This document shows positions 8,702-41,989 of a stretch of DNA of 64,000 nucleotides, piece after piece (position 1 is the first letter of the stretch; each line of letters starts with the position of its first letter). The DNA is taken from NCBI GenBank assembly GCA_039796155.1, contig JBDKKJ010000002.1, positions 97,161-161,160 on the forward strand. Reading direction: 5' to 3'. Source of the stretch: Candidatus Parcubacteria bacterium. Lineage in GTDB: Bacteria > Patescibacteriota > Minisyncoccia > Phycocordibacterales > UBA6065. Under the pieces are notes generated by a model. It saw only the letters and a list, made by a program, of their open reading frames with translations. It had not been told where the DNA came from and made no database searches. Both the position numbers and the translations under genes were made by a program.

Positions 8702-10600
8702 ATGAAAATTTCATCAAAGATTGCTGTAGGTGCATTGAGCCTTGCTCTTGCTTTCTCAGTATCTTCAGGCGTTTCTGCACAGACTATGTCTTATGCAGAT
8801 CTTATCAAGGCTTTCGTTGCTGCTGGTATCATTTCTGCTGACAAGGCAGCTATGGCAACAGCACTTGTCTCTTCAACAGCTTCAACTTCATTCTCTAAGG
8901 ACCTTACAGTAGGTTCATCAGGTTCTGAAGTTTCAGCTCTTCAGGCGGCTATCGGAGTTACACCAGCTACTGGTTACTTCGGTTCAGTAACAAAGTCAGC
9001 AGTTATGAAGTTCCAGGCTTCAAAGGGAATTTCAGCAACAGGTTTCGTTGGACCACTCACACGAGCTGCTCTTAACGGATCAGGTTCATCTGTAGTAACA
9101 GCTCCAGTTGTAACTACTCCAGGTACAACTTCAGTTGTTAACTCAGGTGTAGAAGGTACACTCACTGTTGACCGATTCTCAATCTCAAACACAACAGCGT
9201 ACGAAGGTGACTCAATGGTTCCTGTCCTTGCTATCAAGCTCCAGGCAAAACTTTCTGACCTCACAGTTCAGCGCGTTAAGCTTGATCTCGGAACTTCAAC
9301 TTCAATCTACACAAAGGTCTACAAGACTCTCTATGTAGTTGACGATGCAGGTAAGGTTGTTGCTCAGGCAGACCTTAACTCAAACACAGTTGTAAAGAAC
9401 GACACACAGTATGAAATCACTTTCGGTGGTTTCAGCTACGTTATTGCTAAGGACTCTTCAAAGGTTCTTACTATAAAGGCAGATGTTTACAGCTCTGTAA
9501 AGCCGGCAGATCAGGGTTCACGAACAATCCGACTTGCAGGTACAGACAAGGGTGTTCGAGCGGTTGACGGTGCAGGTATCGACCAGTACGCTGGTGGAAC
9601 AACTGTAACTCAGTCAGTTACGATCTCAACAACACTTGCTGATTCAGCAACAATGAATCTTTCGACAAACTCTTCAAACTACAAGACAACTGAAGTTATC
9701 GCTTCAGCTGGCTCAAGTGAAGATGAACTCGACAAGCTCGCTGTTCTCGCTTTTGACCTTAAGGCAAACAAGGCAGACCTCGATGTCACAGACCTCGAAG
9801 TTCGCTTTACTTCTTCAGGTTCAACAGCTACAACAACTACTGCTTACCTCTACGACGGGTCAACTCTTATCTCAACTGAATCAATCAACGCTGGCGTTGC
9901 TTCATTCAACGATACGAACCGACTCTTCTCTGTAGCAAAGGATGCAACAAAGACACTCACAGTTAAGGTTGATGTTCGAGGTGCAACAGCATCACAGACA
10001 ACTATCGCAGCTAACGTGCTCGCATCAGGTGTATCAGCTGAAAATGCTTCAAGCGAATCAAAGACTGTTTCTGGTTCAGCTACTGGCGAGAACATGGTTA
10101 TCCGAAATGTCGGACCAGTATTCTCACTCGTAAGCAAGGGTATTTCAGTTAGCGGTACAAACAACTCAGGTACAACTCTCTCAACATCTACAATCACAGC
10201 GACATTCTCGCTCCAGATTCAGGCATTGGGTGGAGACATTAGCTTCGGTTCACAGGCTTCAGCAACACCTATGTTTGGATTCAAGATCTACGACGTAGCT
10301 GGTACTGATGTAAGTGCTGCTGCAGGTGCAGGTGCAACTACAACTGGTTTCACTATCCCTTCATCAGGTGTAGTAACTCCAGTAAACGGAGATGCAGCTT
10401 CATTCACACTCCAGGAAAACAATACAGTTACTCTTAATCCGATTACTGTAACTATCCCTGGTAAGACAGCTGCTGGTATCCAGCCTCAGGCTGCGGTTTC
10501 TGTAGGTATCAGCTCAATCAAGTGGATTGGAACTGTTCCTCAGACTTCAACATTCATGGCAGGTAAGACTGAATGGAGAACAAATACACAGACTCCTTAA
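8702..10600 (+). CDS. Secreted surface protein: signal peptide + peptidoglycan-binding (PG_binding_1-like) domain + S/T-rich beta-sandwich repeats
   Basis: Signal peptide MKISSKIAVGALSLALAFSVSSGVSAQ. GSSGSEVSALQAAIGV..GYFGSVTKSAVMKFQASKGISATGFVGPLTRAAL matches the PG-binding repeat. The remainder is low-complexity T/S/V-rich with two internally similar domains of about 90 aa. Confidence 0.65.
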   Translation: MKISSKIAVGALSLALAFSVSSGVSAQTMSYADLIKAFVAAGIISADKAAMATALVSSTASTSFSKDLTVGSSGSEVSALQAAIGVTPATGYFGSVTKSAVMKFQASKGISATGFVGPLTRAALNGSGSSVVTAPVVTTPGTTSVVNSGVEGTLTVDRFSISNTTAYEGDSMVPVLAIKLQAKLSDLTVQRVKLDLGTSTSIYTKVYKTLYVVDDAGKVVAQADLNSNTVVKNDTQYEITFGGFSYVIAKDSSKVLTIKADVYSSVKPADQGSRTIRLAGTDKGVRAVDGAGIDQYAGGTTVTQSVTISTTLADSATMNLSTNSSNYKTTEVIASAGSSEDELDKLAVLAFDLKANKADLDVTDLEVRFTSSGSTATTTTAYLYDGSTLISTESINAGVASFNDTNRLFSVAKDATKTLTVKVDVRGATASQTTIAANVLASGVSAENASSESKTVSGSATGENMVIRNVGPVFSLVSKGISVSGTNNSGTTLSTSTITATFSLQIQALGGDISFGSQASATPMFGFKIYDVAGTDVSAAAGAGATTTGFTIPSSGVVTPVNGDAASFTLQENNTVTLNPITVTIPGKTAAGIQPQAAVSVGISSIKWIGTVPQTSTFMAGKTEWRTNTQTP

Positions 10601-10655: not shown

Positions 10656-10688
10656 AAAAACACCACATCGAAAGATGTGGTGTTTTTC
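10656..10688 (+). terminator. Intrinsic terminator after surface-protein gene
   Basis: acaccacatc-gaaa-gatgtggtgt followed by ttttt. This shows that track start 10675 lies inside the hairpin. Confidence 0.7.
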
Positions 10689-10734
10689 GTTGTCTAAAAC
10701 TCTAAGATGGCAATTGATTGTGTATAATAAGGCT

Positions 10735-11727
10735 ATGAAGAAAGATACACGCGAGCAGGGTTTTGCACTAAAGTTAATGGTTATTGTTGTTGGTGTTTGT
10801 ATTATATTTATCGTTCTTGCTGGACTTGCAAGTCGTATTGGCTTGGGTACAGGATCTCTTTCGCCAAGTATTCTAACTAACTACAATCCTTCAAGTGATA
10901 TTGAATCACGGACAAATCCTATGCTTGATTTTGGTAACGATTCTGGGTTTGTGAGTTCGGACAATAGTTCAGCACGATCTGTCCCTAACACAGATGGTAC
11001 AGGTAAGTCGCCATACTACGGTAAGGTAAATATGTCAGTCGGTAATTCCTATACAATCCAGCCGTCTGATGAGTATTTGATTCTTACAAACAATACAGCT
11101 GTTCCAGTTAACATAACAGGCTGGGCGTTTCTAAACAGTAAGGGTAGTAGGCCAATTCAGAATAGTGGCAATAGTTATTTTTATCCAAGTCCCGACACTG
11201 CAATTATAGGAAAGGGTACTGAGTTCCTTAATTCAAACGGAGTGTTCAATACGGGCCCGATTATGCTTAAAAGCGGGGATACTGCGTATGTTGTCACAGG
11301 CAAAAACTTTGCACAGTTTCCGTTTTCAATCTGGACTTCGTTCCGTGAAAATATATGTCTAGGGTATCTAGAAAATTATCCGTTCACTCCGCGTGTAAAC
11401 CTCGCGTGTCCTGCTTTGGTTAACGATCCGTTGGTAAAAACTTTAACTGATGAATGTTACGACTATGTCGCAACTCTTGGTCGTTGTGAAAATCCAGAAA
11501 AGAATAACAGGAAAGTGTACGATCAGCAGCCGTCACACTGCAAGAACTTTATTGCTGCTCGGGTGGGGTATGCACAGTGTGTTGCTCAAAACTCAAATGT
11601 GAATGGATTCTCACTTAATCAATGGCGAATTTTCCTTGGTCAGAGTAAGGAGATGTGGGCTTTGCAAAGAGAAACTATTACTCTCTACGATGCGAAGGGA
11701 CTTATTGTAAGTCAGCTAAGTTATTAA
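10735..11727 (+). CDS. Membrane-anchored protein with lamin-tail-domain (LTD)-like region and Cys-rich C-terminus
   Basis: Start re-called at ATG 10735 (MKKDTREQGFALKLMVIVVGVCIIFIVLAGL is a TM anchor). ..EYLILTNNTAVPVNITGWAFLNSKG.. is LTD-like. The C-terminal region has 8 Cys. Confidence 0.5.
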   Translation: MKKDTREQGFALKLMVIVVGVCIIFIVLAGLASRIGLGTGSLSPSILTNYNPSSDIESRTNPMLDFGNDSGFVSSDNSSARSVPNTDGTGKSPYYGKVNMSVGNSYTIQPSDEYLILTNNTAVPVNITGWAFLNSKGSRPIQNSGNSYFYPSPDTAIIGKGTEFLNSNGVFNTGPIMLKSGDTAYVVTGKNFAQFPFSIWTSFRENICLGYLENYPFTPRVNLACPALVNDPLVKTLTDECYDYVATLGRCENPEKNNRKVYDQQPSHCKNFIAARVGYAQCVAQNSNVNGFSLNQWRIFLGQSKEMWALQRETITLYDAKGLIVSQLSY

Positions 11728-11783: not shown

Positions 11784-13037
11784 ATGAATCCAAGAAAAAT
11801 AAAAATAGTAGGTGGTCTTTTTTGTGTTTGCACCTTGCTGCCTTTACAGGTTTTCGGTCAAATTGTGCTGACGGAGATTATGTATGACGTAGAGGGGACC
11901 GATATAGGGAGGGAATGGGTTGAAGTTCAAAATACAGGAAGTTCCGCAGTGGATCTTTCCTTGTGGAAATTTTTTGAGGCCAACACAGCTCACAAGCTTG
12001 TGCCTTTAGGTGATACAGCGGTGCCACCATCGGGTTTCGCGGTTATTACAGACAATGCTGACAAGTTTAAAGCAGATAACCCTGGATTCTCGGGACCACT
12101 TTTTGATAGTACGTTCTCACTGAGTAATGAAGGGGAGACTTTGGTAATTAAGGATCCGGCCGGCGCCGACAGCGATTCGGTGACGTACCAGCCTGCGCTT
12201 GGCGGCGCCGGCGATGGCACCACACTGCAGAAAACCACCAGTGGATGGATTTCCGCACCTAGAACCCCAGGGTCTGCTACGACAGCGACCGAATCAGCAC
12301 CAACAAGCTCTACACCTGCAACAAGCACTCCGATTGGTACCACTGAAGACACTGAAACAAGTGAGGCAAAAGATATTCCTACTGTCATAGACACTCTCTC
12401 AACGCATTCAAGCCAATCTGTTGCACTTGTGGCACAAGACAAAGAAGAGTTTCAGGTAACGGCAGGCAGATCACGTCTTGGTTTTGTGGGAGTACCCTTA
12501 ATTTTTGAGGGAAAAATAAAAATAGCAAAAAACACAAGTTCCGGCTCACTTCAGGGGGTGTGGTCATTGGGTGATGGCACCGAACAGACAGGGGATCGGG
12601 TAAGCCATGTTTATGAATTTCCAGGTGATTATATCGTGGTGCTAAACTCCTCACTCGGTAACTCATCGGCAGTTACAAAAGTAAAAGTAAGGATACTCGA
12701 TCCGCAAGTTGGTCTAGCTTTAAGCGGTGAACACTCTGTTGAGATTAAGAACGAATTAAATTCAGAGCTAAATATTGGTGGCTGGATTCTTGAAACAGCA
12801 AGCAAGAGATTTATTGTTCCACGAGATACTCTCATAGCCAAAAAATCAGCAATAAAGATATCGCTCAACGTGGGTGGTCTCTATCCTGTAAAAGAGTACG
12901 TGCGATTCGCCAATCCTTCAGGGAAGATTTTGTCGACACTATATGTGTCTCAAGTACGAAAGAGTGAACCTGTCGTCCTTTTACCTGACGGAATCGACTC
13001 AGTACTCTTCATGCGCAAAATTAAAGAAATGCTATGA
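11784..13037 (+). CDS. Secreted LTD - PKD - LTD-like domain protein
   Basis: Signal peptide MNPRKIKIVGGLFCVCTLLPLQVFG. The LTD is ..IVLTEIMYDVEGTDIGREWVEVQNTGSSAVDLSLWKF.....GFAVITDNADKF...FSLSNEGETLVIKD. The PKD motif is WSLGDGTEQTGDRVSHVYEFPGDYIVVLN. A second LTD-like stretch is VEIKNELNSELNIGGWILE. Confidence 0.7.
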   Translation: MNPRKIKIVGGLFCVCTLLPLQVFGQIVLTEIMYDVEGTDIGREWVEVQNTGSSAVDLSLWKFFEANTAHKLVPLGDTAVPPSGFAVITDNADKFKADNPGFSGPLFDSTFSLSNEGETLVIKDPAGADSDSVTYQPALGGAGDGTTLQKTTSGWISAPRTPGSATTATESAPTSSTPATSTPIGTTEDTETSEAKDIPTVIDTLSTHSSQSVALVAQDKEEFQVTAGRSRLGFVGVPLIFEGKIKIAKNTSSGSLQGVWSLGDGTEQTGDRVSHVYEFPGDYIVVLNSSLGNSSAVTKVKVRILDPQVGLALSGEHSVEIKNELNSELNIGGWILETASKRFIVPRDTLIAKKSAIKISLNVGGLYPVKEYVRFANPSGKILSTLYVSQVRKSEPVVLLPDGIDSVLFMRKIKEML

Positions 13038-16000
13038 TTAATCCATGTTCGACAAAACTTTCTTCAAGTTTGCGTTGGGATTCACTGCGATTGTTGCCTT
13101 TAGTATGGGGGCAATTTATATTAGTAACCATCTTTCAAGCCAGACCGACTCAAACCAAGCGGCTGTATCTCGTTAAGTTTTTTGTAATTAGTATTCTTAT
13201 TTTCTGCTCTCTAAAAGCATCCATTGCGGATGCTTTTGTTGTTTCTCCACACGAAATATTCACAGACACCACGTGGAGTAAGGTTGAGGGACCCTACCTT
13301 GTTCCATGGCCACTTACTATTCACGCAGGAGCGACTCTTTCAATTGAGCCTGGGACAGTTGTTGCTCTACAAGGCGCGCCAATATACGTGGAGGGTGCGT
13401 TACGTGTAGGGGATGACGCTTCAGAGAGCGTGGTGTTTGAATCTACTCTTGAATCTGGGATTATTTCGCCTGAAGCTGATCCACCGAACGATACAGCGTA
13501 TCTACAGCTTGTAGTAGAGACCGGGCAGATTGATGTATCGAATGTAGAAATACGTGGTCATCTGTCACTTCGAACACGAAACGGTCGGGTGAAAATAAAC
13601 GCATTGTCCGCTTCGTCGAGTGATATGTATTTTGATGGCTACAGCCAGGCGACTGCAACTGTCATGTTTTTAGATCAAACTGACTTCATTGTTGTATCCA
13701 ACAATAGTTCACTGTCCCTCCAAGGATCTACTATCCATGATGGATATATAAATATTGATACTCAAAGCAGTTTGTCGCTCCAATATACTGAACTTTTTGA
13801 TATTGAAAAAATACGCATTCTGAATCAAAGTTCTTGTGTAGTCGAGTCCGTGTATATCTCTGGTGGCGGCGGTTTTCTAATAAAGAATAAAAGCACTGCG
13901 GCTATCGGTAATTCAGTCGTTGAGAATATTTTCGCTGACTCAGTCTTTTCTGTATCGAATCAATCGAGGATTAATTTTACCGACTCAGCAGTATCACCCT
14001 TATTTTCAAATTTTGTGCTTTTGGTGGATGGTTCGACGCTTGCGGCAACATCAACAGATGTTACAAATATGTTACAAAAGGGGATACAGGCTGTGCGAGA
14101 CGTGTCGGTGCATCTCTATGATGTAACGATAGCTCACACCCTGGCAACCGGATCTTTTGACACTTTTCTTGTGTCTCTTGTTGGATCAACTCTTGTTGCA
14201 TCCAAATCATCGTTTCTTTCTACATCCGGCAATGCTCTGGAACTGTATAACTCAAATACAAAACCGTATTCTACTATTTCTATAAATGATTCGACGATTA
14301 AAGATTACGGTCAGTCGGGAGTGTATGCAGTACAAGCAACGGGAACTATCGAACATACATCAATACGTAATGGTCGAAAGGGAATCGAACACATATTTTC
14401 TCACCTGAATGTTGTGCAATCCTATATTTCTGATAATTCAGAGTATGGAGCCGTGGCGTACGTTCCCTCATATACTCTTTTGGCACAAGATAATTTTTGG
14501 GGAGACTCATCAGGGCCTCATCATGAAGCCATCGCATCCTCGGGTAAAGGTGACACTGTTTCAGATAATGTTCTATTTGCACCATGGCTTTCAAAAGACC
14601 CTTTAAACCCTTGCTGCTCTAGTGTCCTATTTTTACCTGGACTTATGGCAAGTAGGTTGTATGCGTCAAACACAGATGCTAAAGAGGAGAAGTTGTGGGA
14701 ACCCAGTACCCTTGGAGGGGGTCGAATATCAGAATTGCATCTAGATGATATGGGGCAAAGTATGCGCGGTGACATATATACCCGGGATGTAATCGATGAA
14801 ACTCCTTTACCTTTGTTGGGTGTAAATATTTATAAATCATTCACACAAGACATGAGTGAAATAAAGGATTCTAGTCGTATCCAGGATTGGGTGACAATTC
14901 CTTACGATTGGAGGCTGTCCATTTATAACCTACTAGATAAGGGCCTCAATGAAGAAGGTAATATCTTCTACTCACAACCAACTACCTCTCCATACATTCT
15001 TCAAGAGTTTAAACGATTGGCACGTGAATCCAAAACAGGAAGAGTTACAATCGTCGCTCATTCAAATGGAGGACTTGTTGCAAAAGCACTTGCTGTAAAA
15101 TTAAAAGTTCTTGGAATAGATACGCTTATAGATAAAGTTATTTTGGTTGCAGTGCCGCAAATAGGTACACCTCAAGCGGTCGGCGCGTTATTGCACGGTT
15201 TTGGACAAGGTATACCCAAAGACTCTTTTCCATTTCTTGCATCACCAAAACGTATGCAGACGTTTGGCTTTAATATGCCTGGTGCATATGGTCTGTTGCC
15301 GTCTTTTTCATATTTTGCTGCAGTGGGGGATCCTTTAATTACTTTTGACACTTCGCTTATTGCGACGTTTCCCAATTTTTTATATTTTTTGCGTGGACTA
15401 AACCCGCATCTTCTTTCATACAGTCAGTATCTACACGAAGAAATAGATGTATGGATGCCACCACCTCATATTCAGGTGGTACAAATCGGTGGGTGGGGTA
15501 GGGATACGGTGAAAGGCATTTGGTATTACCAAGGTGTTAAAAACAAAAAGCCTATTACACAGTACGAGCCTTTGTTTACTGAGAATGGTGATCAAACGGT
15601 AGTCATTCCAAGCGCTTTGTTTATAGCGACTTCAACTTCAAATATCAGCCGGTATTGGATAAATCTAAAACAGGCAAACAAGGGCTCGTTTATAAAAAAA
15701 TCACATGCAGACATTCTGGAGCTATCTGAAATGAGGAATCTTATTCAGAAGGTCGTACTGAGTGAGCCTGTTGCGAGTATGGATACTATTGCTACATCTT
15801 CACCTGTTTTTGCGGTTGATAAAAAAGTACAAATCCTTCTTCATTCTGAAGCCGCAGAACTTGATATGTATGACGCTGAGGGAAATCACACGGGTATTTC
15901 CACTACAACAGGATTGATAGAGGAGGGTATTCCTAATAGCTCGTATGGGCGACTAGGCAATGTGGTGTATATCCGTGTGTCAGATGATGGTGCTTATGTT

Positions 16001-17188
16001 CCAGTAAGTAAAAAAGCATACGTGACGACGCGTGCACCCACTACTCAAGAAGACTCGTATACCATTGATGTAACTCAAATTGAGGATAATGGTGTTGCCA
16101 CAACCACATCGTTTGTTGACGTATCTGTGACCGGAACAACCACTGCCTCTTTTAGTGTTCCCAAACTTTCAGACGAGACACCAGTTCTTGAGATGGATGT
16201 AAATAACGATGGTCTCATGGACTATCAAATCAAGCATCATGAAAATGATGTACCCGTGATTCCGGCTCGTGAGGCAAGAAGCCCGCAGGGCGGTACCCGT
16301 CGCCACACTATTTCAACTTCAACAATCAAGGTAATTCAGAGGTTGGAGGTGGCTGGCACGGGAGGCAACTTTACTGGCCGGTATTTTCAGTTCACTCCAT
16401 CAACAAGTCAAAAAAATGGTGGTGTAATTCTTACTAATCAGACCGCTTCAGTTTTCAATGCGCTATCGCATGATAAGATGTTACGTGTCAGTTCCTTTTC
16501 GTCTAATTATAAACATATGAAAAAAATACTCGGTGTTATTATTGCTATTGGTATTCTCGGGGGTATCGGGTTTGTGTATGTTGCACGACCCGTTTCAGCA
16601 CCAACACAAGACATTAACACCGCTGTATCTGCAAAGCTTCCTGCGGACTCTGCTACCTCAAGCATGTATCGTATCTCTCAAGAAAAGTCTTTGGTGAAGT
16701 TTACAATGAATGAAATGCTTAACGGTTCACCATTCTTGGTCGTTGGTACAACTACACAAGTTGCCGGTGACATTGCTATTAAGGATGGTAAGTTTCAGAT
16801 AGGTGAGCTCGCTATTAATGCAAAAACACTCGTAACAGATAGTTCAAGTAGAAACGCTGCTATTGCACGATTTATTCTAAAGTCGGAAACACCGGGTAAC
16901 GAATTCATCACCTTTAAGCCAACATCAAACAACCTTTCAGGTTCAGTTGAGGTGGGGAAGATCGTTTATTTTAACCTTTCTGGAGACCTCACTATTTCAG
17001 GTGTTACAAAGCCTGTAACGTTTACTACAAGCGCAGTTGTAAGCAATACTCAAATCGTAGGTACCGCTGAGACTACTATAAAAAGATCTGACTTTAATCT
17101 TAAGATCCCGAACCTCTCGTTTATTGCGAATGTGGACGATGCTTTTCCTGTGACAATATCGATTGTTGCTGACAGAATAATGCAATAA
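13034..17188 (+). CDS. Giant 1384-aa protein: right-handed beta-helix region + LCAT/PGAP1-like alpha/beta-hydrolase (lipase/acyltransferase) + TM segment + C-terminal YceI-like lipid-binding domain
   Basis: ATGA overlap with the upstream stop. Residues about 70-500 are repetitive N/S/T/V-rich beta-helix-like repeats. The lipase part has ..VLFLPGLMASRLY.., nucleophile elbow VTIVAHSNGGLVA, ..ENGDQTVVIPSAL.. and ..KKSHADILE.. (a putative Ser-Asp-His triad). A TM segment KKILGVIIAIGILGGIGFVYV follows. The YceI-like tail is ..SLVKFTMNE...VAGDI....INAKTLVTDSSSRNAAI......EFITFK....GDLTISGVTKPVTF....IKRSDFNLKIP. Confidence 0.7.
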   Translation: MINPCSTKLSSSLRWDSLRLLPLVWGQFILVTIFQARPTQTKRLYLVKFFVISILIFCSLKASIADAFVVSPHEIFTDTTWSKVEGPYLVPWPLTIHAGATLSIEPGTVVALQGAPIYVEGALRVGDDASESVVFESTLESGIISPEADPPNDTAYLQLVVETGQIDVSNVEIRGHLSLRTRNGRVKINALSASSSDMYFDGYSQATATVMFLDQTDFIVVSNNSSLSLQGSTIHDGYINIDTQSSLSLQYTELFDIEKIRILNQSSCVVESVYISGGGGFLIKNKSTAAIGNSVVENIFADSVFSVSNQSRINFTDSAVSPLFSNFVLLVDGSTLAATSTDVTNMLQKGIQAVRDVSVHLYDVTIAHTLATGSFDTFLVSLVGSTLVASKSSFLSTSGNALELYNSNTKPYSTISINDSTIKDYGQSGVYAVQATGTIEHTSIRNGRKGIEHIFSHLNVVQSYISDNSEYGAVAYVPSYTLLAQDNFWGDSSGPHHEAIASSGKGDTVSDNVLFAPWLSKDPLNPCCSSVLFLPGLMASRLYASNTDAKEEKLWEPSTLGGGRISELHLDDMGQSMRGDIYTRDVIDETPLPLLGVNIYKSFTQDMSEIKDSSRIQDWVTIPYDWRLSIYNLLDKGLNEEGNIFYSQPTTSPYILQEFKRLARESKTGRVTIVAHSNGGLVAKALAVKLKVLGIDTLIDKVILVAVPQIGTPQAVGALLHGFGQGIPKDSFPFLASPKRMQTFGFNMPGAYGLLPSFSYFAAVGDPLITFDTSLIATFPNFLYFLRGLNPHLLSYSQYLHEEIDVWMPPPHIQVVQIGGWGRDTVKGIWYYQGVKNKKPITQYEPLFTENGDQTVVIPSALFIATSTSNISRYWINLKQANKGSFIKKSHADILELSEMRNLIQKVVLSEPVASMDTIATSSPVFAVDKKVQILLHSEAAELDMYDAEGNHTGISTTTGLIEEGIPNSSYGRLGNVVYIRVSDDGAYVPVSKKAYVTTRAPTTQEDSYTIDVTQIEDNGVATTTSFVDVSVTGTTTASFSVPKLSDETPVLEMDVNNDGLMDYQIKHHENDVPVIPAREARSPQGGTRRHTISTSTIKVIQRLEVAGTGGNFTGRYFQFTPSTSQKNGGVILTNQTASVFNALSHDKMLRVSSFSSNYKHMKKILGVIIAIGILGGIGFVYVARPVSAPTQDINTAVSAKLPADSATSSMYRISQEKSLVKFTMNEMLNGSPFLVVGTTTQVAGDIAIKDGKFQIGELAINAKTLVTDSSSRNAAIARFILKSETPGNEFITFKPTSNNLSGSVEVGKIVYFNLSGDLTISGVTKPVTFTTSAVVSNTQIVGTAETTIKRSDFNLKIPNLSFIANVDDAFPVTISIVADRIMQ

Positions 17189-17201: not shown

Positions 17202-18527
17202 ATGAAATCGATCTTTAGGTCTAAAAAACGAAAGCTTCTTGTCGGCACTCTTATTTTCCTTGTTGTGGGCGGTACTATTGGGACGTATGTCTTTATAAAA
17301 TCGACCCCAAAAGAAATTGTATATAAAACTCCCGAGGAGAAGGATCTTTATGTTCGTTTCCTGATGGAAAGTTTTGACACGATTAAACAGAACTATTGGG
17401 CAAAGACTGAGGAGGGTGATATGGCTACACACTTTCAGCAGTCACTTCAGAAAGCAGAAAACTCAATTACGTTACCAGTCCTCGTAACTCGAGATAGAGC
17501 AGGTACAGCCAAAATGCTTTCTGTGGCCTTCTTAGCTGCAACTTCTACTGATGCAAGGAAAAATCTCGCACTCAATACACTTAATGTCGCGTTGTATAAT
17601 CTGCAGCCATACGGTAGAAATGGCGCACTGTCACAAACACAAGAAACAGCATTTCGAGAAAATGTAGCAAACGTGAATCCAAATAAAGATTTGTACAAAG
17701 ACCTCGGTCTTGAAAAAGGTGCCACGGCTGAAGCGGTTACTGTAGCGTACGAGGAGAAGGCTAAGGCGCTCGCTAAAGATCCGACGCCAGAGGCAAAGGC
17801 CGAATTGGCGAAAGTGTCACATGCAAAGGAGGTGCTTGCGAATCCAAACACTAAAGATTTGTATGACGCTGCAAAGATTGAGCCAACATCATCGACAAAT
17901 ATTCTAGGGAAGACCTTGTATGTAAAAATTGATCGTATTTCTCCGACTACTCTTTTGGAATTCGGACGCACGGTGTATTCTGCAACAACAACACCGGGAC
18001 TCAACAGCATGATTATTGATTTTCGACAAAACCTTGGAGGTGCTCTCGATTTTGCACAGAACTTTCTAGGACTTTTCTTGGGACAAAATCAATTCGCCTT
18101 TGATCTATTTCACCAAGGAGACTACAACGCACAGCGAACAAATCAGCCTTATTTTCCAGAACTTGCTCGTTATAAAGATATTGTGATTCTGACTGATAAT
18201 ATGACACAGTCTACAGCTGAAGTTACAAGTGCCGCATTTAAGCGATTTAAATTGGGGACAGTGGTGGGCGGTACTACACGTGGTTGGGGAACAGTTGAAA
18301 ATACATTCCCGCTACAAACAACGGTTGATGAAAAGGAAAAGTACGCGCTTCTTCTGGTTCATAGCATTACATTACGCGAAGATAATCAGCCTACTGAAGG
18401 AAGGGGAATTGATCCAGATGTAAATATCTCAAATCCTAACTGGAAGAAAGAATTAGAAGGTAGGCTTAAATCGTCAGAGTTTACAAAATTGGTTGAAAAG
18501 CTCGTTTCAGCGTCACCAAATAAATAA
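17202..18527 (+). CDS. Membrane-anchored S41 (C-terminal processing peptidase)-like protein with embedded degenerate J-like domain
   Basis: TM anchor LLVGTLIFLVVGGTIGTYVFI. S41-like motifs are ..MIIDFRQNLGGALDF.., ..LTDNMTQSTAEVTSAAFK.. and ..GGTTRGWGTVE.. The insert DLYKDLGLEKGATAEAVTVAYEEKAKALAKDPTPEAKAELAKVSHAKEVLANPNTKDLYD parallels a DnaJ J-domain. Confidence 0.6.
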   Translation: MKSIFRSKKRKLLVGTLIFLVVGGTIGTYVFIKSTPKEIVYKTPEEKDLYVRFLMESFDTIKQNYWAKTEEGDMATHFQQSLQKAENSITLPVLVTRDRAGTAKMLSVAFLAATSTDARKNLALNTLNVALYNLQPYGRNGALSQTQETAFRENVANVNPNKDLYKDLGLEKGATAEAVTVAYEEKAKALAKDPTPEAKAELAKVSHAKEVLANPNTKDLYDAAKIEPTSSTNILGKTLYVKIDRISPTTLLEFGRTVYSATTTPGLNSMIIDFRQNLGGALDFAQNFLGLFLGQNQFAFDLFHQGDYNAQRTNQPYFPELARYKDIVILTDNMTQSTAEVTSAAFKRFKLGTVVGGTTRGWGTVENTFPLQTTVDEKEKYALLLVHSITLREDNQPTEGRGIDPDVNISNPNWKKELEGRLKSSEFTKLVEKLVSASPNK

Positions 18528-22920: not shown

Positions 22921-23727
22921 TAAACCCCACCGCATTAGTCTTTAGATCCGGTTCAGCGTTCTCTGCGTTTTTTATAAGCGCGCAGAACGCTGGGCCGGAC
23001 CTTTGGTCTTTTCAAGAGTGCAGGTGGCTACTACGTTCTATAGACGGACGTAGTAAAACCTACTTTTTATCCAGGAAAGATAAAAGTAGAAACAGGTAAA
23101 TTAAAGTATTAAGTCTTTATTCGTTGTAAGCGAATAAAGATCACTGAGACAAGTTAGTTTAGTGGTTTTTAAATTTCCTAATAGGAAATTTAAGAGCATA
23201 TGGTGGATGCCTAGGCTTCTGAGAAGCGATGAAGGACGTTGTGTAGCGACGATAATTTCGGGGAGCCGCTGAACAGGCTTTGATCCGGAAGTTTCCGAAT
23301 GAGGCAACTCCTCTCGTAGAGATACGAGAGACATTCACGTTTAACGTGAATGAGCACACCCTGGGAAGTAAAACATTTCAGTACCAGGAGGAAGAGAAAA
23401 CAATGTCCGCGTACTGCGGACACCATTACCTTAGTAGTGGCGAGCGAAAGGGTAAGAGCCCAAACTCGGTCTAAATCGTGGATTATGTCGCAAGACGTAG
23501 AACACGATTTAGATCGGGGGTTATAAGGTGATAACGTCTCTATTTATAGAGGAAAAAGTCAAAAAATATTTTGTTAACGGAATTGGCTGGAAAGCCAAGC
23601 CCTAGAGAGTGATAGCCTCGTACGTGAAAATAAAATATCTTTTTTGTTGTCATTCTTGAGTACCTCAGGACACGAATAGCCTGAGGGAATTCGCCGGGAC
23701 TAACCGGCAAGGCTAAATATTCCAGAA

Positions 23728-23767
<40 letters not shown>

Positions 23768-24355
23768 CATCCCGGAGAGGGAGGTGAAATAGAACTGAAA
23801 CCATATGCTTACAAGGAGTGGGAGCGGACTGTCGCAAGACATGATCCGTCACCGCGTGCCTATTGAAGAATGAGCCAACGAGTTGATGCATGCTGCAAGG
23901 CTAAGGGCTTGAAAGCCCGGAGCCGCAGGGAAACCGAGTGTGAATAGCGCGAATCAGTAGTATGCATCAGACCCGAAGCCGAGTGAGCTTGCCATGTGCA
24001 GGTTGAACGCTGTCGAAAGACAGCGGAAGGACCGAACGCTAGAGACGTGCAATACTCTGCGATGACATGTGGTATGGAGTGATAAGCTCATCGAACTCGG
24101 TAATAGCTGGTTCTCTCCGAAATATGTTTAGGCATAGCGTCGTTTGTTCCCAAGGGGGGTAGAGCACTGGAAGATTCTGACAGGTAGAAATATCGCAGAA
24201 CCTATCAAACTCCGAATACCCTTGGTTAAAAGAACGGCAGTAAGTCCGTGGGGGCTAAGCTCCATAGGACAAAAGGGAAACAGCCCGAATCTCAATTTAA
24301 GGTCCCAAAATTTATGCTAAGTACTAGGGAGGTGGTGAATCTTCTTTGACGGTGA

Positions 24356-24387
<32 letters not shown>

Positions 24388-25234
24388 GAAAGCGTAACAG
24401 CTCACTCACTTAGAGGGTTTGCGCCGCAGATGATCGGGGTTAAAGCATAATACCGAAACTGAGGATTGCATCTGTCTTCGGACAGGTGCTCTGGTAGGAG
24501 AGTATTCTACTCTGCGATGAAGGCAAAGGGGTGACCCATGCTGGAGCGTGTAGAAGTAAGAATGTTGGCACAAGTAACCACAATGCGGATGAGAAATCCG
24601 CACGCCGAAAGATTAAGGTTTCCTTCGCAATGGACTTCAGCGAAGGGTTAGTCGGGCCTAAGGGGATGGTGAAAACCGTACCTGATGGACACACGGTTAA
24701 TATTCCGTGACTTACAGTTGGTGCGATGGCATGACGGAGCACAATATATGTAGCCCCTTATTGGATTGGGGTCTTTGGTCAGAGGGTGTGGTACCAGGAA
24801 AATCCGGTACCCGGTTGTTTAATCAACGAGCCTAAGGACAGGAGGGAAGCTCTAGCTTGCTAGAGGGAACTACATAAACCGAGCTTTCAAGAAAAGTGTC
24901 TAAGCATAACCAAAGGTAATCCGTACCGAAAACCGAAACAGGTGATCACGTCGAGAAGACGAAGGCGAACGAGTGAAGGTCCTCCAAGGAACTCGGCAAA
25001 AAATCAGCCGTAAGTTAGCGATAAGGCTTGCCTCCTATTTATTTAGGAGGCCGCAGCGAAAGTATGCCTGGCGACTGTTTATCAAAAACACAGCTCCCTG
25101 CGAACTCGTAAGAGGATGTATAGGGGGTGACACTTGACCAATGCCAGAAGGTCAACCATTTGCGGTGCGATTATATCAAGCTGATGAATGTAAGCCCTGG
25201 TGAATGTCGGCGGTAACTATAACCGTCCTAAGGT

Positions 25235-25444
25235 TCTGTATCTTTTCGCAAGAAAGGCTACAGAAGGACTAGGACGGTCATAGCAGTGTTAGATAGATAC
25301 GAGCCTAATAGATATGTTACACAGAAGCTACCTGATATCGCAGTAATGCAGTATCAGTCCACACATGATTAACGAGAGACCAACGTCATGGATCCGAACT
25401 CGCAAGAGAGGATAAAGATAGAGTCCAACTTTGAGGAATAGTTG
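25235..25444 (+). mobile_element. 210-nt ORF-less insertion in 23S after the U equivalent to E. coli about U1931 (putative small group I intron)
   Basis: The exon junction CCTAAGGT|AGCGCAATTCC restores the universal CCUAAGGUAGCGAAAUUCC. The last exon nucleotide is U and the last insertion nucleotide is G. The first 31 nt form a GNRA-capped hairpin (tctgta tcttttc gcaa gaaagg c tacaga). Confidence 0.6.
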
Positions 25445-26105
25445 AGCGCAATTCCTTGTCAGGTAAGTTCTGACGCGTTGAATAGTGTAACGTCTGGGCA
25501 ACTGTCTCGGAGGACAGCTCGGTGAAAATACAATCCCGGTGAAGATGCCGGGTACCTGCAGTTAGACGAAAAGACCCTAGAAGCTTTACTATAGCTTGAT
25601 ATTGAATATACGATTGCGATGCGTAGCATAGACGTGAGACTTTGAAGTGCGCTTTCGGGTAGCATGGAGTCGCCAGTGAAATAGCGTTCTTCGTTGTTGT
25701 ATATTCTAACCCCAAGGGCAAAAACCATGGGAGACAGTATCTGGTGGGTAGTTTTAGTGGGGCGCTATCCTCCTAAAAAGTAACGGAGGAGCCTATTAAG
25801 GTCAGCTAGTCGCGAATGGAAACCGTGACGATAGTGTATGGGCATAAGCTGGCTTAACTGTAAGACGTACTTGTCGAGCAGATACGAAAGTAGAGCTAAG
25901 TGAACCGACCTTTCGCATTAGATGCGGGGGAAGATTATCGGACAAAAGCTACTCTAGGGATAACAGGCTCGTTCCGCCTAAGAGTTCATATCGACGGCGG
26001 AGTTCGGCACCTCGATGTCGGCTCGTCTTATCCTGGGGGTGGAGAAGCTCCCAAGGGTTTGGCTGTTCGCCAATTAAAAAGGCACGTGAGCTGGGTTCAG
26101 ACCGT

Positions 26106-26414
26106 TTAGATCGTGACGATTGCGCATTTTGCGCGGTGGTCATGCGCTAGACAGTCTGAATCCCTCGGACATCAAGGACACATGAGACACAACCAATCAC
26201 GGCGGTCGCACGGGGTAACCTTTGCGTACGTCATCAACTTATTTCGGTAAAATCCACACATAATATGATATGTAGGGACTATACCGAGGGAATTTTTGTT
26301 ACACGAATCTCGTGTTATGAAATGCCCGTAGAGACTAAACGTTGATCTCCTTACTAACAAAATAGGTAAGGATGAAGATATAGTCCATTCCGCACAGCAA
26401 TGTGCGAAAAGAAG
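26106..26414 (+). mobile_element. 309-nt ORF-less insertion in 23S after the U equivalent to E. coli about U2593 (putative group I intron at the I-CreI-type site)
   Basis: The exon junction TTCAGACCGT|CGTGAGACAGG restores UUAGAACGU|CGUGAGACAG. The 5' exon ends in U and the insertion ends in G. GCGGU(C) words that could pair with the exon ACCGU occur at about nt 30 and about nt 97 of the insertion. Confidence 0.6.
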
Positions 26415-26815
26415 CGTGAGACAGGTTGGTCTCCTATCTACTGCAGGCGTTGATTCTTGAGGAGCTTTGCTTCTAGTACGAGAGGACCGAAGTGAACGGA
26501 CCGCTGGTCTATCTGCTGTCACGCCCGTGGCAACGCAGAGTAGCTATGTCCGGAATGGATAACCACTGAAAGCATCTAAGTGGGAAACCAACTCCAAGAT
26601 AAGGAATCGTTTGAGAGCCCTAGAAGACTACTAGGTTGATAGGCTTTAGGTGTACGCACAGCAATGTGTTAAGCCGAGAAGTACTAATTGCTCGATCTTA
26701 TTAGGAAATTTATGAATCACACGGGTGTATCAAGGGGATACATGCCGGTTCTAATTTTCTCAGATTTTAATATACCTGACTTACTGTATTTCCAAATAAA
26801 CAACATAATTGAATT

Positions 26816-26934
26816 CTCTGTTCTGGTGATTCAACGCGATGGAACCACCTCTTCCCATCCCGAACAGAGAAGTTAAACGTCGTAGTGCCGATGATAGTCC
26901 TACAGGGCGAAAGTAGGTAGTCGCCAGTACAGAG
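26816..26934 (+). rRNA. rrf: 5S rRNA
   Basis: ..ctggtgat...ccacctcttcccatcccgaacagagaagttaaacg..gtgccgatgatagt...gtaggtagtcgccag.. The helix I ends pair and extend into flanking gaattc/gaattc. Confidence 0.9.
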
Positions 26935-39538: not shown

Positions 39539-41035
<1,497 letters not shown>

Positions 41036-41212
41036 AGTGAAAAACACGCTTATTGTCTTCGGACAATAGCTTACAGAGTCGATCGTTTTAATACGGGTTT
41101 GCGAGATACCTATAACTCGATGGAATCAGGGAAGACTGATACCGACCTAGTAACCTTTATTGGATACTAAGGTAAGAACGGAACAAAATAGAATACAGTA
41201 TATTTTGAAAGA

Positions 41213-41238
41213 AAACCGCCCTAAAGGCGGTTTTCTTC
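41213..41238 (+). terminator. Intrinsic terminator after 16S
   Basis: aaaaccgcc-ctaaa-ggcggtttt followed by cttc. Confidence 0.65.
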
Positions 41239-41252
41239 TGGTTGGAAAGCGC

Positions 41253-41280
41253 TTGACAAAATCGTACTATCTGATATAAT
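41253..41280 (+). promoter_or_regulatory. Consensus promoter TTGACA-16-TATAAT for orphan cassette 41366
   Basis: ttgaca aaatcgtactatctga tataat lies 15 nt after the 16S terminator. Confidence 0.65.
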
Positions 41281-41365
41281 AATAATAAGACACGTTCGGG
41301 AGGCTCTATCAAGAGTCCATCCCTTTGGCAAAGAAAATGCACAGTAACACTCAATTCATGTGAAT

Positions 41366-41674
41366 ATGAAGTTGGTTCAATATCGCAAAGACTGGCTACA
41401 AAGCCTTGTCGACGCGATTCTGTTTGTGTTCGACTGCATGGCGAAATTATTCGTCTGGCTTGTCTCAGGTGCTCTCTTGCTTTCGAAGCAGGGTATCGCT
41501 GAGGCTCGCAGTGACCCCAAGAAGGTCTATGCAATCATCGGTGGTCCTTTGATCACCTACGTCGGACTTGGAATGATTCGCTGTCTCAGCGTCATCCTGT
41601 CCAACAACCCAACAATATACTACATGCCGGTCCTCGACTGGTGGTGGGTGTATCTTATGAAGTTGCTCCATTAA
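41366..41674 (+). CDS. Orphan 102-aa membrane protein (2-3 TM), stand-alone cassette between 16S and tRNA-Ile
   Basis: MKLVQYRKDWLQSLVDAILFVFDCMAKLFVWLVSGALLL...VYAIIGGPLITYVGLGMIRCLSVIL...DWWWVYLMKLLH. The ORF fills the space between its own promoter and terminator. About 45% GC in the first 100 nt (hand count). No family recognised. Confidence 0.5.
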   Translation: MKLVQYRKDWLQSLVDAILFVFDCMAKLFVWLVSGALLLSKQGIAEARSDPKKVYAIIGGPLITYVGLGMIRCLSVILSNNPTIYYMPVLDWWWVYLMKLLH

Positions 41675-41694
41675 CTTCAACAAAAATGGAAACT

Positions 41695-41726
41695 GGCGCC
41701 GTGTCTAGCACACCGGCGCCTTTTTG
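41695..41726 (+). terminator. Intrinsic terminator of cassette 41366
   Basis: ggcgccgtgt-ctagc-acac(c)ggcgcc followed by tttttgtttt. Confidence 0.65.
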
Positions 41727-41839
41727 TTTTAAAGAAAGTCATTTTTCTTGAAAAATAAGGGCTTTTCTGCTATATTTCTGAAGCGTCATAAGGCCCTGTC
41801 GACCTCGTATCAACGACAGATATAAGGGCCCTTGTAGCG

Positions 41840-41868
41840 ATAATATGCGCGTATAGCTGTTTTGGTAG
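41840..41868 (+). repeat. Degenerate duplicate of the tRNA-Ile 5' end plus its upstream ATAAT
   Basis: ataatatGCGCGTATAGCTgttTTGGTAG (41840-41868) versus ataat-GCGCGTATAGCTcagTTGGTAG (41905-41931). Confidence 0.7.
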
Positions 41869-41909
41869 TTAAACGGATATGTAGCACATTTGAGACGGGT
41901 AGGTATAAT

Positions 41910-41982
41910 GCGCGTATAGCTCAGTTGGTAGAGCACATCACTGATACTGATGGGGTCCTAGGTTCAAATCCTAGTACGCGCA
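41910..41982 (+). tRNA. tRNA-Ile (anticodon GAU), no encoded CCA
   Basis: Hand-folded cloverleaf: acceptor GCGCGTA/TACGCGC+A, D arm GCTC-AGTTGGTA-GAGC, anticodon arm CATCA-CTGATAC-TGATG, variable GGGTC, T arm CTAGG-TTCAAAT-CCTAG. Confidence 0.92.
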
Positions 41983-41989
41983 CAAAGTA

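Follow-up and report, generated by a model that had tools for sequence, protein, structure and literature searches.

A rare lipase–YceI open reading frame in a Candidatus Parcubacteria bacterium and its plausible origin from two neighbouring genes

INTRODUCTION

Glycerophospholipids at membrane surfaces are the substrates of the enzymes LPLA2 (PLA2G15) and LCAT, which attack their acyl esters and can also act as acyltransferases. Crystal structures of YceI-family proteins show polyisoprenoids and fatty-acyl compounds as ligands, a polyisoprenoid in TT1927b of T. thermophilus and a fatty-acid amide in HP1286 of H. pylori. Here we analyse an open reading frame (ORF) that encodes domains of both kinds, located at positions 13034..17188 on the forward strand of a 64,000-nucleotide (nt) stretch of contig JBDKKJ010000002.1 from a Candidatus Parcubacteria bacterium (assembly GCA_039796155.1), the whole of which is called the window in the following. 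A sequence-only reading of the window had described this ORF as one polypeptide joining a beta-helix, an LCAT-like lipase and a YceI-like lipid carrier, all displayed at the cell surface, and had proposed it as an undescribed architecture for stripping and capturing the lipids of host membranes.

The setting gives such a proposal some interest. Candidate Phyla Radiation (CPR) bacteria have been described as unable to synthesise membrane lipids, and lysolipids are enriched in CPR cells (PMC7242380), while according to a 2024 perspective no mechanism of lipid uptake or breakdown has been identified in Patescibacteria (PMC11665869). A full-text literature search for the LCAT-like family or for YceI in Patescibacteria found no relevant paper.

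With LPLA2 and LCAT, the hydrolase encoded in the window shares an alpha/beta-hydrolase fold with a cap, a Ser-Asp-His triad placed in the same elements (an xHSxGG elbow, a DGDxTV acid and a C-terminal His), the PYDWR motif and a template-modelling score (TMt) of 0.65–0.71, but it is only 14–17% identical to them in structural alignments, is bacterial and predicted to be extracellular, is set between a beta-helix and a beta-sandwich, and belongs to a large family of which the named members among the matches listed all come from CPR lineages. Those CPR proteins, annotated as 'lipase/acyltransferase domain-containing' (such as P0362, 'Lecithin:cholesterol acyltransferase [Parcubacteria group bacterium GW2011_GWB1_40_5]'), have the same core of hydrolase and beta-sandwich at 35–51% identity, variable N-terminal modules and, in many cases, a QTA motif at the C-terminal end, behind which comes an amphipathic or transmembrane helix. 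Among the 150 best representatives of that family from 1.84 billion proteins searched exhaustively with HMMER, none has a YceI domain, whereas in the window protein and one counterpart, P0001, the amphipathic tail is missing and the chain runs on into YceI.

The YceI part resembles the described family (E. coli 1y0g, T. thermophilus TT1927b 1wub, H. pylori HP1286 3hpe and the Burkholderia BcnA-type lipocalins) in its full-length PF04264 match, those proteins being extracytoplasmic and equipped with an export signal; the YceI part differs in that it can be read through from the upstream lipase gene, and in that its anchor is predicted to be an uncleaved transmembrane helix and not a cleaved signal peptide. 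A further parallel is offered by the phospholipase effector Tle4, whose immunity protein is Tli4 (4r1d), since there too a lipase of related fold (Foldseek E 1e-8) is encoded beside the gene of a small extracytoplasmic protein; the window, however, has no context of a type VI secretion system (T6SS), and its YceI protein is unrelated to Tli4 and widespread without a lipase. Finally, components that are separate in relatives and fused in one lineage form the classic signature, that of Rosetta-stone fusions, from which functional linkage is inferred. The present case has that same distribution, its components being separate neighbours in relatives, but differs in that the downstream part keeps its own start and export signal, and in that the topology of the fused chain conflicts with the normal location of that part.

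RESULTS

One frame in the window, two genes in most relatives

The ORF begins with an ATG and comprises 1384 codons plus a stop, with no internal stop, so that the description of one uninterrupted frame stands. Three Pfam matches exceeded their gathering scores (Beta_helix PF13229, LCAT PF02450 and YceI PF04264), and hydropathy analysis gave two strongly hydrophobic segments, at residues 46–64 in the signal region and at residues 1165–1183 (score 2.55). An identical protein is deposited at NCBI as MEN9621683.1, 'hypothetical protein RLZZ67_117 [Candidatus Parcubacteria bacterium]', encoded on a contig of 175,553 bp, and carries the Joint Genome Institute (JGI) label 'polyisoprenoid-binding protein YceI/pimeloyl-ACP methyl ester carboxylesterase'; the named homologues came from Paceibacterota and Parcubacteria.

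A probable origin of the C-terminal part emerged from its alignment with proteins that stand alone. The last 223 residues, counted from an internal methionine, Met1162 (ATG at 16517..16519, forward strand), align at 100% coverage with hundreds of standalone YceI proteins of 220–223 residues, at up to 74% identity, and in an alignment of 33 sequences, with 32 standalone homologues, the standalone starts fall in the column of Met1162 except for three that are slightly shifted. The standalone proteins begin with MKK, a hydrophobic helix and a conserved RPVSAPxQD. By these alignments the C-terminal 223 residues are predicted to constitute a complete YceI gene with its own start codon, the ancestral one, and its own N-terminal signal anchor. 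The predicted lipid-binding domain itself (16667..17170, forward strand, residues 1212–1379) matched PF04264 with E 3.5e-18 over profile positions 1–150 of 150, and a profile built from homologues matched the structures 3hpe, 1y0g, 1wub, 7bwl and 5w2x, deposited as polyisoprenoid-binding or YceI-like proteins, in full agreement with the earlier YceI assignment.

Contigs carrying the closest standalone YceI proteins have in common with the window a gene order that runs PG_binding, LTD, LTD+PKD, lipase, YceI, DnaJ-S41 peptidase, L10 and L7/L12. A metagenome scan added 80 YceI loci, giving 90 sequences in all (89 loci and the window), in which fusion was assessed by scoring six-frame stop-to-stop ORFs with hidden Markov models of both domains. 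Only the window and one other locus, L001, had both domains in one such ORF. The fusion was thus confined to two of nine syntenic loci, and in the remaining seven (L005, L006, L007, L010, L012, L013 and L017) the lipase gene is separate and lies next upstream of YceI. In L006 (GCA_036400935.1) a lipase of 1149 residues is followed by its stop, 34 nt and a YceI gene of 223 codons, and in L007 the corresponding figures are 1200 residues, 27 nt and 222 codons; the spacing from stop to ATG was 21–34 nt in L006, L007, L010, L013 and L017, with a longer gap in L012. A tblastn match in L010 that reached upstream of the YceI start proved spurious, the upstream peptide being unrelated. A scan of GTDB genomes with a single YceI protein returned two distant loci only, with no lipase nearby, and was uninformative.

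The fused locus L001 comes from another sample and an independent assembly (Logan SRR22045393). It has an unbroken frame of 1344 codons, flanked by matching genes on a syntenic contig, and its product, P0001, is 59% identical to the window protein across 100% of the query; over most of the YceI domain the identity is 86–91%, falling to about 64% across residues 1300–1349. When the whole protein was used as query in a word-indexed search covering 5.8 billion cluster representatives, one other protein with both PF02450 and PF04264 was found, again P0001. The architecture that had been taken as undescribed is therefore, at the least, very rare, and the same domain order was found elsewhere in L001 only. 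This rarity is as expected if two genes are involved that are normally separate neighbours.

One of the seven loci with separate genes, L005, differs from the others. Its YceI protein is 74% identical to that of the window, but the beta-helix/LCAT gene has been replaced (5524-8875 in L005) by one for a 746-residue LCAT/PGAP1/Lipase_2-type protein without a beta-helix, which gave no tblastn alignment with the window hydrolase, and an additional ORF for a 123-residue membrane protein with several transmembrane segments stands between lipase and YceI. Some 60 nt before the YceI ATG in L005 are homologous to the junction of the window and L001, and the YceI frame is open for about 65 codons upstream. 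That L005 keeps a different and barely related lipase beside YceI suggests that the pairing has been maintained.

The junction and the lost lipase tail

The C-terminus of the lipase in the unfused relatives L006, L007, L010, L013 and L017 consists of an ASVF-type motif, which in L006 reads QTASVF, and behind it 26–32 residues forming a basic amphipathic helix. The window protein reaches the corresponding point through a linker rich in Thr, Gly and Ser (16199..16438, forward strand, residues 1056–1135) that is poorly conserved, at 20–36% identity to L001 and with indels that stay in frame. Then follows the motif QTASVFN (16439..16459, forward strand, residues 1136–1142), which in the unfused relatives precedes the amphipathic tail. 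Both the window and L001 keep QTASVFNA and have thereafter just 19 residues up to Met1162. This junction segment, ALSHDKMLRVSSFSSNYKH (16460..16516, forward strand, residues 1143–1161), stands in place of the tail, the stop and the spacer of 21–34 nt; 10 of its 19 residues are identical in L001, and its helical hydrophobic moment is 0.14, as compared with 0.44–0.67 for the unfused tails.

No tail remnant was found in any of the three frames upstream of the YceI ATG, either in the window or in L001, and a deletion is therefore favoured over a simple shift of plus or minus one. A candidate site for programmed frameshifting, ATGAAAAAAATA, was rejected, as it opens every standalone YceI gene inspected except that of L012; it is common to these starts because it simply encodes MKKI. 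By our own estimate the chance of the junction of about 20 codons being open is about 0.2, and the homologous stretch is open in the unfused L005 too, for which reasons the open junction was not counted as evidence of selection.

The motif before the junction has a wider distribution in the family. Of 248 family members, 37 have QTA within their last 70 residues, mostly 36–37 residues from the C-terminus, where chance alone would give about 5 such members. The C-terminal module has the form QTA(S/A)(V/A)(Y/F), followed by a basic amphipathic helix or, less often, by a transmembrane helix and a basic tail (for example in P0127, P0131, P0134, P0330 and P0003), and may serve as a tether to the membrane or in sorting. 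A sortase-type sorting signal composed of QTA and a hydrophobic C-terminus was considered and rejected: the C-termini of neighbouring secreted proteins that were inspected do not carry it, and QTA was therefore treated as belonging to a tail specific to this family.

Features of a start site at Met1162

The MKK that begins with Met1162 and the signal-anchor helix are kept in both fused genes. Third-codon-position identity between the window gene and L001 averaged 0.44 over 1323 sliding windows of 21 codons; the second-highest value, 0.76, was found for codons 1152–1172, centred on Met1162, and tied with codons 415–435. The highest value (0.90) belongs to codons 1–21 at the start of the ORF (13034-13096), where amino acid identity is only 0.52; this strongest nucleotide conservation in the gene points to an element of translational coupling or regulation, or else to a second frame being conserved.

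Sequence composition and predicted structure gave a similar picture for Met1162. The region of 30 nt on either side of it has a folding energy of −2.1 kcal/mol and a GC content of 0.28, values as extreme as which occur at only 1.3% and 0.6%, respectively, of 157 internal in-frame ATGs of the window (means −10.1 kcal/mol and 0.43), and which fall within the values spanned by 31 annotated starts (means −5.1 kcal/mol and 0.33). In L001 the internal YceI ATG has −3.2 kcal/mol, as against −10.7 ± 2.6 kcal/mol at other internal ATGs of that locus, and the YceI starts of standalone relatives range from −0.6 to −6.6 kcal/mol. At the 22 start sites of the window that were inspected no Shine-Dalgarno-like GGAGG was seen upstream, and the starts lie in A/T-rich, weakly structured sequence; in a genome without Shine-Dalgarno motifs it is such an unstructured AT-rich context that is the relevant start signal. 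Taken together, these features indicate, if indirectly, that Met1162 is probably still used as the start of YceI.

Membrane topology of the fused polypeptide

The helix that follows Met1162 (16526..16585, forward strand, residues 1165–1184) is the predicted signal anchor of YceI. Four Lys or Arg residues and one His are found in the 15 residues preceding it, which include KHMKK, as compared with one Arg in the 15 residues following it, charges that fit a signal anchor predicted to have its N-terminus inside and its C-terminus outside. This MKK-plus-transmembrane export signal is intact yet internal in the fused ORF, and the location of YceI hence depends on whether Met1162 is used. A helix that emerges after about 1100 exported residues would act as a stop-transfer sequence and would therefore leave the YceI moiety in the cytoplasm. 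In the fused polypeptide YceI is thus probably on the cytoplasmic side, and it appears unlikely that adhesin, lipase and carrier are all displayed at the surface on one chain, as had been supposed; with a single transmembrane segment between the ectodomain and YceI, and charges favouring the N-in/C-out orientation, the predicted topology points the other way.

The hydrolase and the beta-sandwich

Pfam, AlphaFold2 (AF2) modelling and Foldseek agreed in placing an LCAT/LPLA2-like alpha/beta hydrolase with a cap at 14612..15808 (forward strand, about residues 527–925). The match to LCAT PF02450 had E 2.2e-10 and 40.7 bits (cutoff 21) over residues 597–728, with profile positions 66–181 of 392 aligned. 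Matches to DUF7379 and PGAP1 were below threshold, and these and a Ser_hydrolase match are not independent, since all overlap the stretch of the nucleophile elbow. The AF2 model of residues 520–1060 (predicted local distance difference test, pLDDT, 89.5; predicted template-modelling score, pTM, 0.92) had crystal structures of LPLA2 and LCAT as its top matches when compared as a whole, with LPLA2 4x97/4x90 at E about 1e-14 (1.6e-14 for 4x97) and TMt 0.70, and human LCAT 5bv7/4x96 at E 1e-13 to 1e-12 (3e-13 for 5bv7) and TMt 0.65. Direct sequence searches of the PDB with the hydrolase, and likewise with YceI, gave nothing useful, and profile and fold searches were needed.

The four motifs on which the original LCAT-like assignment was based were all located, LPGLMASRLY at residue 534, AHSNGG at 675, GDQTVV at 852 and SHADIL at 890. 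When the hydrolase region was aligned with 44 homologues, the predicted nucleophile Ser677 (AHSNGG; codon 15062..15064), the predicted triad acid Asp853 (GDQTVV; codon 15590..15592) and the predicted triad base His891 (SHADIL; codon 15704..15706), all on the forward strand, were each invariant in 45 of 45 sequences, as was the PYDWR motif of the LCAT family at residues 623–627. Both the assignment and the suggestion of an intact Ser-Asp-His triad were thereby strengthened. The hydrolase is followed by a beta-sandwich (15824..16198, forward strand, about residues 931–1055; AF2 strands at 412–536 of the model) that is conserved in L001, L006 and L007.

The N-terminus and the beta-helix

According to hydropathy and to the alignment of L001 and L007 with the window protein, the N-terminal region (13034..13231, forward strand) opens with the conserved MxxxCSTKxSS, continues with a long n-region and has its hydrophobic core at residues 46–64; a signal-peptidase site is probable after IADA (residue 66), as judged from the sequence. 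The MxxxCSTKxSS peptide recurs in L001 and L007. The stop of the preceding gene and the start of the ORF share an overlap of 4 nt (ATGA).

A right-handed parallel beta-helix follows (13232..14593, forward strand, about residues 67–520), with Pfam matches to Beta_helix and NosD; that to Beta_helix PF13229 had E 1.4e-6 and 28.4 bits (cutoff 25.9). The AF2 model of the N-terminal 460 residues (pLDDT 77, pTM 0.78) has regular short beta strands throughout, and its best fold matches in the PDB, although weak (TM 0.2–0.45), were all beta-helix proteins, namely PL6 alginate lyases, AlgG, phage tailspikes, PfbA and Ag43. The adhesins among these are PfbA and Ag43, the others being lyases, epimerases and tailspikes. 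The beta-helix that had been read from the sequence is thus upheld.

Neighbouring genes and other features of the window

Upstream of the fused ORF, and on the same strand, lie genes for a PG_binding_1 protein (8702-10600), an LTD protein (10675-11727) and an LTD+PKD protein (11784-13037), in an order kept in L001, L005, L006 and L007. The three are consecutive and co-oriented and are predicted to encode secreted or surface proteins, and they probably form one surface-protein operon with lipase and YceI. The downstream neighbour (17202..18527, forward strand), conserved in the same four loci, encodes an odd pairing of a J domain (residues 163–222) and an S41 C-terminal-processing peptidase (residues 238–408) behind a hydrophobic N-terminus.

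Elsewhere in the window the rRNA genes are unlinked and in an unusual order (23176-26929 and 39539-41983), with 23S and 5S lying some 13 kb upstream of 16S and tRNA-Ile(GAT) following the 16S gene. The 23S gene measures 3533 nt against a model of 2925 nt and contains a group I intron (26148–26407). Such an rRNA arrangement is typical of CPR genomes.

DISCUSSION

The reading that we favour, with somewhat better than even confidence, is that the fusion arose by a lineage-specific in-frame joining of two Parcubacteria genes that are normally separate neighbours. The upstream gene would encode a secreted protein with a signal peptide, a beta-helix, an LCAT/LPLA2-type serine hydrolase, a beta-sandwich and a disordered linker, and the downstream gene a YceI lipid-binding protein of 223 residues, whose N-terminal signal anchor, left uncleaved, would hold it at the membrane's outer face. 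About 50–70 nt, comprising tail, stop and spacer, would have been lost in the ancestor that the window genome shares with L001, after which ribosomes translating the first gene would run on into the second. Two products may then be made, one being the normal YceI protein, initiated at Met1162 and exported by its own anchor, and the other a long read-through protein, in which the transmembrane helix of YceI would substitute for the lost amphipathic tail as a tether. Of the single-machine fusion first proposed, the ORF and its domains have proved real, while the single machine gives way to two genes joined in frame, which seven syntenic relatives keep apart.

Several observations weigh against this reading. 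The fused frame has been kept through divergence to 59% identity in two lineages, which could mean that the single polypeptide is selected, a point weakened by the shortness of the fusion-specific segment, since about 20 codons with a chance of about 0.2 of being open make its survival weak evidence for selection. The start-like features of Met1162 could partly reflect AT-rich coding of MKK and a transmembrane helix. The beta-helix model was built on an alignment of six sequences, and its fold matches are weak. As for the gene pair, its adjacency is confined to one subclade: the 6 kb upstream of YceI in L011 contain no LCAT-like gene, none was found near any locus whose YceI is less than 50% identical (many of these contigs being short), and in L002 and L004 the lipase homologues lack a neighbouring YceI gene. 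With adjacency so limited, and with each family found without the other, lipases and YceI proteins are not generally interdependent.

Among the alternatives, a join that is neutral or slightly harmful, with a useless extension on the lipase, YceI made from its own start and the adjacency reflecting only a shared operon for secreted proteins, appears rather unlikely to us. It would suit the restricted distribution of the fusion, the short and weakly conserved fusion-specific segment and the wide occurrence of YceI genes without a lipase neighbour, and vice versa. Yet the replacement of the L005 lipase in place by a barely related one suggests a maintained pairing, the fused state has outlasted a synonymous divergence that is saturating, judging from the third-position identity of 0.44, and, with the tail conserved in relatives, its uncompensated loss should be costly.

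We consider it unlikely that the fusion is a genuine single-polypeptide machine of which only the full-length protein matters, with beta-helix and lipase exported, one transmembrane span, and YceI at the cytoplasmic face, the same molecule passing across or receiving inside the lipid released outside, or else with everything outside by some unusual insertion. The frame is unbroken in both genomes and the linker indels preserve it, both halves are under purifying selection, and P0003, P0313, P0161 and P0128 end with QTA, a spacer, a transmembrane helix and a basic tail, showing that a transmembrane anchor after the motif is used elsewhere in the family. Against these points stand the role of the very same helix as the N-in signal anchor exporting YceI in every standalone homologue, a charge distribution that is the reverse of that expected for a stop-transfer anchor, the hallmarks of a start at Met1162 in both fused genes, and the restriction of the fusion to two of nine syntenic loci and nowhere else.

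An effector–immunity-like pair, in which the phospholipase would be a weapon against host or competitor membranes and the anchored YceI would protect the producer's own membrane, whether it binds the enzyme or acts as a sink for lysolipids and fatty acids, is in our view quite improbable. The idea draws on Tle4, solved with its immunity protein, as the next-best fold match after LPLA2 and LCAT (4r1d, E 1e-8), on the ability of YceI-type lipocalins such as BcnA to sequester lipophilic molecules and to shield cells from toxic lipophilic compounds and from lipid radicals (PMC5350466, PMC9113575), and on the proposal that phospholipases breach host envelopes in Patescibacteria (PMC11665869). However, YceI is here a widespread family of housekeeping type, found mostly without a lipase, immunity proteins are normally specific partners, and a toxin covalently fused to its own antidote is not expected. 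An artefact of sequencing or assembly, in which a small error would have hidden a stop or frameshift (the nearest unfused relatives having their stop only 21–34 nt before the YceI ATG), is effectively refuted, because the independent L001 assembly has the joined frame unbroken between matching flanking genes at 59% amino acid identity and with a differently worded junction, and neither alternative frame of the window encodes a tail remnant or a displaced continuation.

Under the favoured reading of two joined neighbours, the fusion consists of known kinds of gene newly joined in frame and is not a new kind of machine. For annotation the lesson is that an apparent new architecture can be two neighbours minus a stop codon, with the downstream start still active; novelty of domain order does not by itself make a new machine, since the joining of neighbours by loss of a stop gives the same look. 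The result that transfers to other genomes is the clade-conserved pair of lipase and YceI genes in a surface-protein operon.

What this pair might do can be sketched from its parts. The beta-helix would bind a polysaccharide or surface structure, the hydrolase would cleave or transacylate phospholipids at a membrane surface in the manner of LPLA2 and LCAT, yielding lysolipids and fatty acids, and the co-operonic YceI would bind the hydrophobic products at the cell's own membrane. A lipase–carrier partnership of this kind is plausible, because the pair is conserved in one clade, the lipase of L005 has been replaced by another lipase, and the two genes have become joined in one lineage. The stripping and capture of lipids that had been proposed would likewise find some support in the conserved adjacency of lipase and YceI. 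The stronger version, in which enzyme and YceI would be the missing lipid-acquisition module of Parcubacteria, with the beta-helix docking on a neighbouring cell, the enzyme freeing or transacylating lysolipids and fatty acids, the anchored YceI capturing them and the fusion standing as a Rosetta-stone record of the partnership, we put forward tentatively and hold to be rather unlikely. Field data nevertheless point to lysolipids as a currency (PMC7242380). A secreted LPLA2/LCAT-type enzyme is of the kind that makes lysolipids, and with the adjoining YceI it gives a concrete, cloneable pair, which may be regarded as a reasonable candidate for lipid acquisition in these bacteria.

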